A DNA stretch of 37,092 nucleotides from UHGV virus genome UHGV-0225063; one strand, 5' to 3'. The translations under genes were made by a program, and so were the position numbers. The stretch is from a virus. This document shows, piece by piece, positions 3,531 to 33,590 of this stretch; positions within the stretch are counted from its first letter, which is position 1, and every line of letters begins with the position of its first letter. Under the pieces are notes generated by a model that had not been told where the DNA came from, did no database searches, and saw nothing but the letters and a program-made list of their open reading frames with translations.

Positions 3531-3938
3531 TCAGTATCCAGTAATCGTGTCTGCCAGCAGCTCATTCTTATAATCTGACAAGAGTTTTAGTGCCAGTGCA
3601 GTATTATCACAATCAGCTTCTCCAGTAGCAGCAAAGATAGTCAACTTCACCAACTCCATGGAGGTGTTAAGTTCATAGCCATTCATTAGCAAGAAAATGC
3701 TGGTGGCCTGGAAAGCTGTTCGCTTGTTGGCATCGTTAAAAGCGTGAGACTTCGCTATTGCTACCATATACATAGCGGCAAATTTAAATAAATCCTCACA
3801 GCCTTCATATATGTGCAGATTATGCACCCTGTTCAGGGCACCTTCGAGCTTACCTATATCAGGCTGCCCGCTGTTCGGCAGCGTACTTTTCTGAATCGCA
3901 ATAACCTCATCAACCGAAAGAAACGTAATCTCAGCCAT
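3531..3938 (-). CDS. doc: Doc toxin (Fic-fold kinase family)
   Basis: 135 aa; motif HAFNDANKRTA matches the Doc signature (P1 Doc has HIFNDANKRTA, from memory). Start codon overlaps the stop of the upstream antitoxin. Confidence 0.85.
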   Translation of the reverse strand: MAEITFLSVDEVIAIQKSTLPNSGQPDIGKLEGALNRVHNLHIYEGCEDLFKFAAMYMVAIAKSHAFNDANKRTAFQATSIFLLMNGYELNTSMELVKLTIFAATGEADCDNTALALKLLSDYKNELLADTITGY

Positions 3939-20138: not shown

Positions 20139-20351
20139 TCAGTCCCGAACGAACGTAACCTTCGTGTTTGTCGCTCGCCGTACAAGGCGCGCCGCTTCGC
20201 GTTGCATTTCATCGATAACTTTTGGCGTCATCGGCTGATGCGCATATTTACGTTCAATCTCTGCAAAAATCCCGTTCATCGTTTCGCTGTCTGGTGGGAT
20301 AACTTCAACGTTTAATCGTGCCATTGGTTTGTGCTGCCCTGTTTTTCTCAA
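20139..20351 (-). CDS. Hypothetical small protein between lysis and packaging genes
   Basis: 70-aa ORF, no recognisable motif; overlaps the Rz1 3' end. Confidence 0.3.
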   Translation of the reverse strand: MRKTGQHKPMARLNVEVIPPDSETMNGIFAEIERKYAHQPMTPKVIDEMQREAARLVRRATNTKVTFVRD

Positions 20352-20583
20352 AAGTCCTGATATCGGCCTTATCCCTGTTGCACTGTGCTAATGCTGACAA
20401 CAACGCAACATTCAGGTTAAGGCTGGCTCCCCACGTAAACGGGTCGGGTAAATCTGGCTGGGGTGTTTCATCCGTCAGACTGGCTGGTAACGGAACGACC
20501 GGCACCGACACGTATACCGTTCGCGTATTCGTGCAACCGCTTAACTGCGCCAGAAGGAACGATACGAACAGCACAATCATCAT
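20305..20583 (-). CDS. Outer-membrane spanin (Rz1-like lipoprotein)
   Basis: Internal Met of ORF 20305..20649 gives MMIVLFVSFLLAQLSGC with a lipobox (LSGC) and a proline-rich mature region; it starts inside Rz in another frame and extends past the Rz stop. Confidence 0.6.
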   Translation of the reverse strand: MMIVLFVSFLLAQLSGCTNTRTVYVSVPVVPLPASLTDETPQPDLPDPFTWGASLNLNVALLSALAQCNRDKADIRTFEKNRAAQTNGTIKR

Positions 20584-20860
20584 CCGCAACAGCCACTTTG
20601 ATATCTTCCTGGGTTCTCTGTGACTCCAGTGCGATCTGCTGTTTTGCATGCTGGTTAGCCTCTATAACTGTATTGATGATTTGCAGTGATTGCAGGACGT
20701 TACTGGTAATGGCTGTTGCAGATTCAGCATTTCGTACAGCCTCATCAGCACGCTCCTTTTCGTGTTGATATTTGCTGTAGTAATGCCCGGCAGACCAGAT
20801 AAAAGAACCGATGACGGTAACAAAGAAGGCAACAATAACCAGCTTATATCTCAACTTCAT
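20468..20860 (-). CDS. Inner-membrane spanin (Rz-like)
   Basis: 130 aa; N-terminal transmembrane helix (LVIVAFFVTVIGSFIW) then a coiled-coil periplasmic part; follows R with a 17-nt overlap. Not similar to lambda Rz as I recall it. Confidence 0.6.
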   Translation of the reverse strand: MKLRYKLVIVAFFVTVIGSFIWSAGHYYSKYQHEKERADEAVRNAESATAITSNVLQSLQIINTVIEANQHAKQQIALESQRTQEDIKVAVADDDCAVRIVPSGAVKRLHEYANGIRVGAGRSVTSQSDG

Positions 20861-21320
20861 TTACCACCCCACCAGCTTCTTTAAATCGGGAAATCAGGTC
20901 ACCGATTCTATGTTCATACTGACCGTAACCTGCACCAGGTAACGACGCCCAGATATTGCTGCAACGATCGATAGCCTGACGGATATCACCGCGATCAATC
21001 ATCGGTAAAGCGCCACGCTCTTTAATCTGCTGCAATGCCACTGCGTCCTGGCTTTTGGGGGAGAAGTCTTTCAATCCAAGCTGCTTACGATAGGCATCCC
21101 ACCAACGGGAAAGAAGCTGGTAACGGCCTGCAGCTGTTGATTTGAGTCTTGGGTTTAGCGTGACAAGTTTGCGAGGGTGATCTGAGTAATCAGTGAATAG
21201 CTCTCCTCCTACAATGACGTCATAACCATGATTTCTGGTTTTTTGACGTCCGTTATCAGTTCCTTCTGACCACGCCAGCATATCGAGAAACGCCTTACGT
21301 TGATTATTGATTTCCACCAT
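20844..21320 (-). CDS. R: Endolysin (lambda R-type lytic transglycosylase)
   Basis: 158 aa; [53 protein letters not shown]... is near-identical to lambda R as remembered. Confidence 0.9.
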
Positions 21321-21627
21321 CTTCTACTCCGGCTTTTTTAGCAGCGAAGCGTTTGATAAGCGAACCAATCGAGTCAGTACCGATGTAGCCGATGAACACG
21401 CTCGTTATATAAGCGAGATTGCTACTTAGTCCGGCGAAGTCGAGAAGGTCACGAATGAACCAGGCGATAATGGCACACATCGTTGCGTCGATTACTGTTT
21501 TTGTAAACGCACCGCCATTATATCTGCCGCGAAGGTACGCCATTGCAAACGCAAGGATTGCCCCGATGCCTTGTTCCTTTGCCGCGAGAATCGCGGCTAA
21601 CAGGTCATGTTTTTCTGGCATCTTCAT
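21304..21627 (-). CDS. S: Holin (lambda S-type, class I)
   Basis: 107 aa; [39 protein letters not shown]... is near-identical to lambda S, including the Met1-Lys2-Met3 dual-start motif. Confidence 0.9.
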
Positions 21628-21742
21628 GTCTTACCCCCAAAAAGGGGATTTGCTCTATTTAATGAGGAATAAGGTCGATTACTGATAGAACAAATCCAGG
21701 CTACTGTGTTTAGTAATCAGATTTGTTCGTGACCGATATGCA

Positions 21743-21782
21743 CGGGCAAAACGGCAGGAGGTTGTTACCGCGACCTCCTGCC
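21743..21782 (-). terminator. GC-rich hairpin with short U-tract (candidate terminator/attenuator) upstream of S
   Basis: Minus strand: GGCAGGAGG-tcgcggtaacaa-CCTCCTGCC followed by GTTTTG; 9-bp perfect stem. Confidence 0.3.
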
Positions 21783-21869
21783 ACCCGCTTTCACGAAGGT
21801 CATGTGTAGAAGGCCGCAGCGTAACTATCACTGATGAATTCAGGATAGCCAGTGGCTACGGCTCAGTTA

Positions 21870-21945
21870 TGGTGCTGGTTAACGGACTTGAACCGCTACC
21901 CATTCGCTTACAAGGCGACTGCTCTACCATTGGAGCTAAACCAGC
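21870..21945 (-). tRNA. tRNA, anticodon UGU by manual folding (Thr)
   Basis: 76-nt minus-strand sequence GCTGGTT...AACCAGCACCA folds as a cloverleaf: 7-bp acceptor stem, D-loop with GG, T-loop TTCAAGT, encoded CCA. The anticodon stem has one G/A mismatch, so the isotype is tentative. Confidence 0.55.
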
Positions 21946-21950
21946 ATATT

Positions 21951-22025
21951 TGGCGGGACAGCGTGGACTCGAACCACGATAAGAAGGTTAACAGCCTTCC
22001 GTAATGACCTTTATACGACTGACCC
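21951..22025 (-). tRNA. tRNA, anticodon GUU by manual folding (Asn); slightly degenerate
   Basis: 75-nt minus-strand sequence GGGTCAG...CTGTCCCGCCA; anticodon arm GAAGG-CTGTTAA-CCTTC, T-arm CGTGG-TTCGAGT-CCACG, encoded CCA; one T/T mismatch in the acceptor stem and a 3-bp D-stem. Confidence 0.45.
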
Positions 22026-22026
22026 A

Positions 22027-22072
22027 AATAAAAAAAGCCACCGTTGCAACTTAAGAGTCACTAACGGCAGCT
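22027..22072 (-). terminator. Intrinsic terminator just downstream of Q (tR'-like candidate)
   Basis: Minus strand: GCTGCCGTT-(17-nt loop)-AACGGTGGC followed by TTTTTTTATTT. A TTGACA hexamer lies immediately after the Q stop codon (pR'-like candidate). Confidence 0.4.
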
Positions 22073-22116
22073 TATGCCAATAGTGTTGCTCATTTGCTCA
22101 ATGATGTCAACACGTT

Positions 22117-22629
22117 CTATGCTACATGTTTAATTTTCTCTACACGTTTCCGATTTTTAAACGCACTATCCAGAACCGGGTAAATCATAAACAACGAGGC
22201 ATTAAGGATTTCGTCAACTTCCCGTCGACAGGTTGCGAGCGATGGTTTTTGAATGCGCCCGCCGCCACGGCATAACATCTTGCGAGGTCTTGCGACGCGA
22301 TGATAGTAAGATGCAATGGCGTGCTTGGAAGAGCCATGAGCGTAGTAGCTGAGGAGGATTCCAAAGGCTTTCTTGTCAATGTACATGACGGAATCGACGA
22401 CCTGAGAAATCAACATTCCATCATCATCATTACACATTGGCCTTGTCATAACTCTTCCCGGCTCTACGCTCTCCATGAACTTCGCTATTACGCTGCTCAT
22501 GCGCTTTTCCAGACGACCTGAATAAACCCATGCGCCCCACAGTTCAAGCCAGCCATTCAGCCACTCATGCTGTTCTTTGGTGAGGTTTAGTTCTCTTATG
22601 CCCACGCGTCTTCGCGCTGGTTTAGCCAT
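22117..22629 (-). CDS. Q: Late-gene antiterminator Q (non-lambda type)
   Basis: 170-aa ORF immediately upstream of the tRNA/lysis region; the motif ELWGAWVYSGRLEKR resembles phage antitermination-Q family proteins as remembered; differs from lambda Q. Confidence 0.65.
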   Translation of the reverse strand: MAKPARRRVGIRELNLTKEQHEWLNGWLELWGAWVYSGRLEKRMSSVIAKFMESVEPGRVMTRPMCNDDDGMLISQVVDSVMYIDKKAFGILLSYYAHGSSKHAIASYYHRVARPRKMLCRGGGRIQKPSLATCRREVDEILNASLFMIYPVLDSAFKNRKRVEKIKHVA

Positions 22630-22855
22630 CGTCTTCTTCCTCGTACATTGAGCTATTCGGATCGCTCATCAGTTCTGCGCAGCAATCTGAGCACACGTGA
22701 ACTTCCAGCACATGCAGCTTCTGACCGCAGTTAGCGCACGTTAAAGCCCGCTCGACGCTTTCTTTCTGGTATTGAAGGGATTGGGATGGGCTAAGCATGG
22801 CTTTCACCATTAAAAAGTCGCTTGTAAGCATCAATGTCTCGTTTTGCTTCACCAA
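22622..22855 (-). CDS. Small zinc-ribbon protein (hypothetical)
   Basis: 77 aa with CANCG...CSDCC (two CxxC pairs); overlaps the Q start by 8 nt. Confidence 0.35.
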   Translation of the reverse strand: MVKQNETLMLTSDFLMVKAMLSPSQSLQYQKESVERALTCANCGQKLHVLEVHVCSDCCAELMSDPNSSMYEEEDDG

Positions 22856-33353: not shown

Positions 33354-33425
33354 GCGCGGCGTTACCGCATACCAATAACGCTTCACTCGAGGCGTTTTTC
33401 GTTATGTATAAATAAGGAGCACACC

Positions 33426-33590
33426 ATGCAATATGCCATTGCAGGGTGGCCTGTTGCTGGCTGCCCTTCCGAATCTTTACTTGAACGAATCACCCGTAAA
33501 TTACGTGACGGATGGAAACGCCTTATCGACATACTTAATCAGCCAGGAGTCCCAAAAAATGGATCAAACACTTATGGCTATCCAGACTAA
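33426..33590 (+). CDS. cIII: CIII (FtsH inhibitor that stabilises CII)
   Basis: 54-aa ORF translated by hand: [54 protein letters not shown], matching lambda CIII as recalled; below the ORF-track length cutoff. Confidence 0.85.
   Translation: MQYAIAGWPVAGCPSESLLERITRKLRDGWKRLIDILNQPGVPKNGSNTYGYPD

Follow-up and report, generated by a model that had tools for sequence, protein, structure and literature searches.

Virus genome UHGV-0225063 was analyzed as one DNA stretch of 37,092 nucleotides (the window), with attention to the region around positions 21,743 to 22,072, between the antiterminator gene Q and the lysis genes. The late strand is the minus strand, and late-region features are read 5' to 3' on it throughout; in this direction the order is Q, a TTGACA hexamer, a hairpin followed by seven U residues (U7), tRNA-Asn, tRNA-Thr, the S leader, and the genes S, R, and an Rz-like spanin gene. 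We are highly confident that the region is a lambdoid phage's late-gene control cassette of the Q21 type, and that two functional tRNA genes and then the leader of a lambda-type holin gene S come after it. The identity and position of every cassette element were established in this analysis, and functions for the promoter, the Q binding element (QBE), the pause element, the terminator, and Q would carry over from published work on phage 21, to which the sequence is nearly identical.

An earlier note, made from the letters alone, had described two tRNA genes, a hairpin with U7, a TTGACA hexamer, a GC-rich hairpin before S, and no toxin gene, and these observations were borne out in every particular. 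Its interpretation of the tRNAs, promoter, terminator, and a layout like that of Shiga toxin (Stx) phages also stood, and its suggestion that a mismatched tRNA may be decaying did not. It had missed that annotations and experimental work already exist for all of the elements in phage 21. The arrangement is ordinary, already known, and widespread, because it is annotated in many phages and in hundreds of Escherichia coli (E. coli) genomes.

A Q21-Type Late Switch

The longest open reading frame (ORF) of Q begins at ATG 22629 and ends with a TAG stop at 22117-22119; the 162-residue form in phage 21 records and PDB entries would begin at GTG 22605. Residues 9-170 are 100% identical over 162 amino acids to the crystallized Q21 chains 6JNX and 6P18 (the deposited crystal and cryo-electron microscopy structures of phage 21 Q), and this identity, with the match to PF06530, places the protein in the Q21 family. 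Six bases downstream of the stop codon lies the TTGACA hexamer (22110-22105), which had been noted as standing directly after Q and is the -35 element of the late promoter pR'. The exact repeats ATTGAGCA and AATGAGCA of the phage 21 QBE lie between the -35 and -10 hexamers. Its 8-bp repeats were described by Yin et al. (bioRxiv 10.1101/651190) and in PMC8022706. The pause element and the terminator are likewise identical to the annotated phage 21 elements.

The strong hairpin with U7 reported between the Q stop and the first tRNA has a folding energy of -20.2 kcal/mol (z = -6.1), with 0 of 200 shuffled sequences equally stable. Judged by its sequence, it is the Q-controlled terminator tR'. The 27-nt core of tR' is identical in more than 120 viral contigs, and the terminator annotation of the phage 21 record OL657228, transferred by alignment, reaches 22026. 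Just 4 nt separate the U-run from the start of tRNA-Asn, leaving no room for a separate tRNA promoter, which we rejected for this reason.

Table 1. Features of the late control and lysis region in the window, with the basis of each assignment
Feature	Coordinates	Strand	Basis
Q antiterminator gene, Q21 type	22117..22629	-	Pfam Phage_antitermQ (PF06530), E = 1e-24
pR' -35 hexamer TTGACA	22105..22110	-	Transferred from phage 21 record OL657228 by alignment
QBE, two 8-bp direct repeats, ATTGAGCA (22102-22095) and AATGAGCA (22094-22087)	22087..22102	-	Identical to annotated phage 21 QBE
pR' -10 hexamer AACACT, 17-bp spacer	22082..22087	-	Transferred from OL657228
Predicted late transcription start site (A)	22075	-	Transferred from OL657228
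Sigma-dependent pause element TAAGCTG	22068..22074	-	Transferred from OL657228
Intrinsic terminator tR': hairpin (22073-22037) with 17 pairs and one bulge, plus U7 (22036-22030)	22030..22073	-	Fold; phage 21 and Sf6 annotation
tRNA-Asn, anticodon GUU, CCA encoded	21951..22025	-	ARAGORN; Rfam RF00005, 55.3 bits, E = 2e-9
tRNA-Thr, anticodon UGU, CCA encoded	21870..21945	-	ARAGORN; Rfam RF00005, 61.5 bits, E = 4e-11
Hairpin A, long and imperfect, ~20 pairs, directly 3' of tRNA-Thr	21813..21862	-	Fold, -27.7 kcal/mol, z = -5.5; common to phage 21 and lambda
Hairpin B, GC-rich 10-pair stem GGCAGGAGGU..ACCUCCUGCC, then GUUUUG	21753..21782	-	Fold; extended structure 21739-21794
Conserved S-leader block containing hairpin C (21688-21728)	21680..21737	-	Hairpin C fold, -13.9 kcal/mol, z = -2.5
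Stem-loop UCCCCU..GGGGGU just 5' of the S start codons	21633..21649	-	Lambda counterpart at this position, nearly identical in sequence
Holin gene S, lambda type, Met-Lys-Met dual start	21304..21627	-	Pfam Phage_holin_3_1, E = 2.4e-30; Sf6 and lambda annotations
Lysis gene R	20844..21320	-	
Rz-like spanin gene	20468..20860	-	

Two Intact tRNA Genes

ARAGORN accepts both tRNA candidates and finds exactly two tRNA genes in the 37-kb window; its anticodons (tgt and gtt) agree with the UGU and GUU that had been read manually. Both sequences, which are separated by a 5-nt spacer, fold as cloverleaves at minimum free energy, and their Rfam scores (Table 1) compare with a gathering score of 29 for RF00005. 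The charging determinants in E. coli are G34, U35, U36, and G73 for asparagine and G1-C72, C2-G71, G35, and U36 for threonine. Read from the sequence, these determinants and an encoded CCA end are present in the window tRNAs, and tRNA-Asn also keeps U33 and a 7-nt anticodon loop. Three stem positions are mismatched: U4.U68 (acceptor stem) and U13.U22 (D stem) in tRNA-Asn, and G27.A43 in tRNA-Thr.

Variation per site, computed among 50 relatives as counts of sequences and not of independent events, is 0.0011 in tRNA-Thr (the lowest in the region), 0.0053 in tRNA-Asn, 0.092 in the 5-nt spacer, and 0.0187 in the next 60 nt. The same relatives have 12 variable sites in tRNA-Asn vs. 4 in tRNA-Thr, with single tRNA-Asn loci carrying U33A or an anticodon changed from GUU to GAU. 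The higher number of variable sites suggests that some lineages may be losing tRNA-Asn under relaxed constraint. In one IMG/VR contig (L024), the GTT to GAT change is accompanied by a nearby C-to-T change, and ARAGORN calls the gene tRNA-Ile(gat).

The S Leader and Its Hairpins

Downstream of the tRNAs, window positions 21868-21628 match lambda 44,945-45,186 almost base for base. The match takes in the three hairpins (A, B, and C) as well as the stem-loop by the S start, and homology to phage 21 stops at window 21808. The distance from tRNA-Thr to the S start (21627) measures 242 bp, in line with the earlier estimate of about 240 bp. This gap is non-coding and matches the lambda leader, and no stxA or stxB lies between the tRNAs and the lysis genes, in agreement with the claim that toxin cargo is absent. 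The sole 50-residue ORF in the gap (21679-21831) was rejected as a hidden gene: it has no Pfam match and falls in a segment left non-coding in lambda records. The stem-loop and the Met1-Lys2-Met3 start of S also match lambda almost base for base, giving S a lambda-type dual start; we take this stem-loop to correspond to the lambda sdi structure.

Hairpin B is the second GC-rich hairpin that had been seen before S, and its extended form folds at -28.5 kcal/mol (z = -3.4). Its stem is the same in lambda, the sole difference being one loop base (G here, C in lambda). Since the leader matches lambda and phage 21 departs from the shared sequence at 21808, hairpin B is, to judge from the alignments, part of the lambda S leader and not a flank of the tRNA module. 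Compensatory changes for hairpins A, B, and C are nearly absent among 83 distinct relatives, so these structures are not provable by covariation. In hairpin B, just 31 of the 83 can form the central pair (21778/21757), and 52 have a mismatch there.

Position pair 21778/21757 is hypervariable (G, A, or U opposite C or A), and the other pairs of hairpin B are kept in at least 68 of the 83 relatives, most of them in at least 79. A mutational hotspot or selection to weaken the hairpin may account for this variability. Of 82 distinct relatives, 70 show no difference across the 58-nt block at 21680-21737, within which hairpin C (GAACAAAUC..GAUUUGUUC) lies, and the hairpins on the 5' side of the block vary freely; such conservation could reflect either function or a preferred recombination joint. 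In phage 21 (~2110-2125 of locus L004), hairpin A is followed by CTTCTTTTTTT, with a U7 run that is absent from the window and from lambda; together they resemble a second intrinsic terminator, placed after the tRNAs and before the S21 pinholin gene.

Proposed Mechanism and the Role of the tRNAs

In the Q21 mechanism described by Yin et al. (bioRxiv 10.1101/651190), RNA polymerase (RNAP) from pR' halts at the pause element and terminates, two Q21 protomers on the repeats load onto the paused complex, and a Q21 ring ("nozzle") at the RNA exit channel blocks the formation of terminator hairpins; the same work showed Q-dependent terminator readthrough for phage 21. By this scheme, pR' of the window (-35 at 22110-22105, -10 at 22087-22082) would fire constitutively from A22075, and without Q the RNAP would pause at 22074-22068 and terminate at tR' (22073-22030), leaving a leader RNA of ~45-50 nt. 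Once Q21 had accumulated, two protomers would bind ATTGAGCA and AATGAGCA between the -35 and -10 hexamers and load onto the paused polymerase, and the Q ring around the RNA exit channel would keep terminator hairpins from forming. RNAP would then read through tR' and the later hairpins A and B. We infer that the tRNAs are co-transcribed with the late genes, excised, and used in translation: host tRNA-processing enzymes would release them, the remaining RNA would carry S, R, Rz, and the structural genes, and the most likely task of the tRNAs would be to help decode ACA and the phage's numerous Asn codons while late proteins are made.

Codon usage gives moderate support to a decoding role. Compared with 50 kb of E. 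coli K-12, where ACA makes up 10.2% of Thr codons, its share is 17.1% in the window late genes (Fisher p = 9e-4) and 37.8% in the early genes (Fisher p = 1e-17). Asn codons number 48.7 per 1000 in the late genes and 48.1 in the early genes, vs. 37.7 in K-12. The same ACA bias, together with the same tRNA pair, was reported in the SfI paper.

Several observations weigh against this account of the region. The pR' -10 hexamer AACACT is weak, agreeing with the consensus at 3 of 6 positions, and a simple consensus promoter and terminator scan of 21200-22700 reported neither pR' nor tR'; the scan is too strict for such a -10 and for a bulged stem. Because it called neither element, their identification rests on homology to phage 21. 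The authors of the phage L paper leave undecided whether the tRNAs come from the late mRNA or from a promoter of their own (PMC8022706). In RNA sequencing of BTP1 lysogens, the two tRNA genes are apparently highly represented (their exclusion from a list of highly expressed genes points to many reads), and the lytic operon is drawn as starting just after them; by analogy, these data hint at tRNA expression without full induction. Counted by variable sites, tRNA-Asn is only marginally below its flank (12/75 vs. 17/60). Furthermore, the ACA excess is largest in the early genes, whose translation comes too soon to benefit from a strictly Q-dependent tRNA, and Asn codons are not rare in E. coli, the SfI authors having seen no bias that would explain tRNA-Asn.

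Alternative Explanations

One or both tRNAs, and tRNA-Asn above all, might be non-functional passengers that persist in an often-exchanged block between tR' and the S leader, as the earlier note had suspected of the mismatched gene; we regard this as very improbable. The two U.U mismatches, the 12 variable sites with their U33A and GAU variants, the retention of only the first 24 nt of tRNA-Asn in Stx2c phages, and the lack of any tRNA in ~40 of 127 relatives with the same terminator would all fit such decay. The window copy, however, is the majority allele at every position among relatives carrying the same terminator, and its GUU anticodon, G73 discriminator, CCA end, and U33 loop are intact. 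At 55.3 bits, its Rfam score is on a par with T5 tRNA-Asn (55.4 bits) and above T5 tRNA-Thr (45.4 bits), and both T5 tRNAs are active in vivo (PMC12409363). Both window tRNA genes are less variable per site than their flanks, and the pair is kept in at least 73 terminator-carrying viral contigs, with 281 complete E. coli genomes retaining the entire segment. Decay of tRNA-Asn in the window was thus rejected on scores, identity elements, and variation among relatives. The S leader invites a different alternative. Hairpin B, a stable GC stem followed by GUUUUG and conserved in lambda at the same distance from S, resembles in its sequence a weak intrinsic terminator, and it is conceivable, if rather doubtful, that it acts as a back-up terminator limiting leaky holin expression in lysogens and overridden by Q, or, in a variant of this idea, that hairpins A and B are processing sites for RNase III or another enzyme that set late-mRNA stability. 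A 1988 paper, by its title, reports that RNase III processes the lambda late transcript at certain sites in vivo. The U7 run after hairpin A in phage 21 would be in keeping with this alternative; the U-run of hairpin B, however, has only 4 U and can be sequestered in the extended stem, the terminator scan made no call there, and the central pair is mismatched in most of the distinct relatives with compensatory change nearly absent.

A further explanation gives the tRNAs another task, namely, to serve as nuclease-resistant versions of host tRNAs destroyed by PARIS (through its nuclease AriB) or by HepS, and so to sustain late translation. AriB cuts the E. coli tRNAs Lys(UUU), Thr(UGU), and Asn(GUU) between positions 40 and 41; its targets share U36-A-A-U39, E. 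coli tRNA-Lys with the change U39A is no longer cleaved, and PARIS is neutralized by the T5 variants of the Lys, Thr, and Asn tRNAs. The two tRNAs of the window, Thr(UGU) and Asn(GUU), correspond exactly to two of AriB's three main targets. At positions 36-41 they read UAAGCG (Thr) and UAACCU (Asn), where E. coli has UAAUCA and UAAUCC, so that both lack U39 and differ at 41 (G39/G41 in Thr, C39/U41 in Asn); T5 tRNA-Thr has G39 as well, and HepS of Gifsy-1 also cuts tRNA-Thr species. As in T5, then, the anticodons are those of AriB targets and U39 is missing next to the cleavage site, but the T5 tRNAs, like those of E. coli, differ from the window copies at many aligned positions, and T5 has a tRNA-Lys. 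ARAGORN finds no tRNA-Lys(UUU), the prime AriB target, in the window, which has variants of Thr and Asn only, and in published tests Thr and Asn without Lys were insufficient. Because divergence runs through the phage tRNAs from end to end, chance would be expected to produce differences at 39 and 41, and substitutions at positions 39-41 will often occur in diverged tRNAs. The same slot in relatives holds Asn with Gly(UCC), Asn with Leu(UAA) (phage L), or no tRNA, none of which fits the AriB target set, and the resemblance to the targets of one nuclease, out of several known to cut tRNAs, was seen post hoc. We consider this explanation unlikely. The chance is similarly small that the pair serves counter-defense rather than mainly codon aid in a broader sense, acting against AriB or a related prophage- or satellite-borne nuclease with narrower targets and being switched on with the late genes.

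A Q21-type cassette followed by two functional tRNA genes is therefore the reading that we retain. As it stands, the region matters little, being a textbook late-gene switch whose parts are already in GenBank records, and it offers a clear illustration of mosaic joints. Only the function of the tRNA pair is worth an experiment: were counter-defense true, the viral-tRNA escape known from the virulent phage T5 would extend to temperate phages and prophages that are common in E. coli, Shigella, and Salmonella, and a very common prophage feature would be linked to phage-defense conflicts.

Other Parts of the Genome

An ORF at 20305-20649 (minus strand) overlaps the Rz-like gene in another frame and contains the lipobox LSGC; by its sequence it is probably an embedded outer-membrane spanin of the Rz1 type. 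On the plus strand, positions 33413-33471 score 88.5 bits (E = 1.7e-20) against RF01804, the Rfam model of the lambda cIII thermoregulator element, which indicates that the early region is lambda-like. The structural genes (128-21302) match myovirus-type phages (vB_EcoM-606R2 and relatives) at ~97% and SEN34-like phages more weakly. Because of the match to myovirus-type phages, the genome joins a regulatory and lysis region of the lambda/21 type to virion genes for a contractile tail, as described for SfI.

A Swappable Slot Among Relatives

We gathered 127 sequences sharing the 27-nt tR' core and compared what follows the terminator. tRNA-Asn and tRNA-Thr occupy this position in ~73 sequences, tRNA-Asn and tRNA-Gly(UCC) in 6, and an Stx-type tRNA set in 4; ~40 have no tRNA and continue into a lambda-type or other non-coding segment. 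The slot between the tR' U-run and the S leader thus holds, depending on the relative, the two tRNAs of the window, other tRNAs, the non-coding lambda segment, or a Shiga-toxin cassette. In bacterial genomes, a 531-bp stretch is found at a coverage of at least 80% in 281 of 5426 complete E. coli genomes, where the NCBI pipeline labels its parts as tRNA-Thr, tRNA-Asn, a lambda-family holin, and a Q-family antiterminator.

Joints are visible on both sides of the terminator. At GTAAGCTG, in the start-site region (~22074-22075), the terminator is joined in different loci to three unrelated upstream regions: one with the phage 21 QBE, one with the QBE of Sf6 and L, and a third (TTTGAGGCAGCCAGAATGAAATATCATACCGTTTAAAGAT, 10 loci) that has no TTGACA at the corresponding position. 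The Q21-type Stx phages (Stx2c phage 2851, locus L007, ~3890-3925; and L019, L033, and L054) keep only the first 24 nt of tRNA-Asn (GGGTCAaTCGTATAAAGGTCATTA) and then diverge, which means that the breakpoint at which the Stx-type tRNAs and the toxin genes came in lies inside the tRNA-Asn D-arm.

Comparison with Known Phages

The closest known system is phage 21 (OL657228, AJ237660), which aligns without gaps at ~98% nucleotide identity from Q to ~60 bp past tRNA-Thr. It has an identical Q, the same QBE repeats, -35 and -10 hexamers, and terminator, and both tRNAs, in the same order and spacing, and OL657228 annotates pR' -35 and -10, the QBE, the start site, the pause element, tR', tRNA-Asn, and tRNA-Thr. 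Over 22040-22420, identity reaches 98.2% with phage 21 and 100% with phage phi458; at promoter position -3 the window has G where phage 21 has C, an allele common to 11 viral contigs. Beyond 21808, phage 21 continues with its own pinholin S21 and signal-anchor-release (SAR) endolysin, whereas the window has the lambda-type S leader, S, and R.

Shigella phage Sf6 shares with the window the terminator, both tRNAs (100% identical), and the lambda-type S leader and holin, and its record lists the same promoter, qut site, and terminator together with tRNA-Asn and tRNA-Thr, as "similar to phage 21." Phages L and BTP1 are P22-like. In Sf6 and L, unlike the window, the C-terminal half of Q is diverged and the QBE is different (ATTAGCC/ATTTAGCC type), the sequences joining at the start site (~22074); phage L moreover has Leu(UAA) in place of Thr. 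The phage L paper (PMC8022706) describes two QBE types and tRNA genes that begin 46 bp after the late start. The Q21-type Q region of SfI, a myovirus, is 98% identical to that of the window, and the SfI paper reports the same tandem tRNA pair after Q, listing Sf6, ST64T, PS3, and p21 with one or both; the pair has been described after Q in Sf6, SfI, BTP1, and others.

Among Stx-converting phages, with their 933W-type layout, Stx2c phage 2851 has Q21, pR', and tR' at 96.6% identity and the same general order of Q, terminator, tRNAs, cargo, and lysis genes. It differs from the window in what follows the 24-nt remnant of tRNA-Asn, namely, tRNA-Ile, two tRNA-Arg, and stx2AB. The earlier comparison of the Q-tRNA-lysis layout with that of Stx phages was therefore apt, since phage 2851 places tRNAs and stx2AB behind the same Q21, pR', and tR'. 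The late leader of lambda (tR' to S, 44,780-45,186) has a different Q, promoter, and terminator, and where the window has its two tRNAs, lambda has a non-coding segment of ~165 bp.

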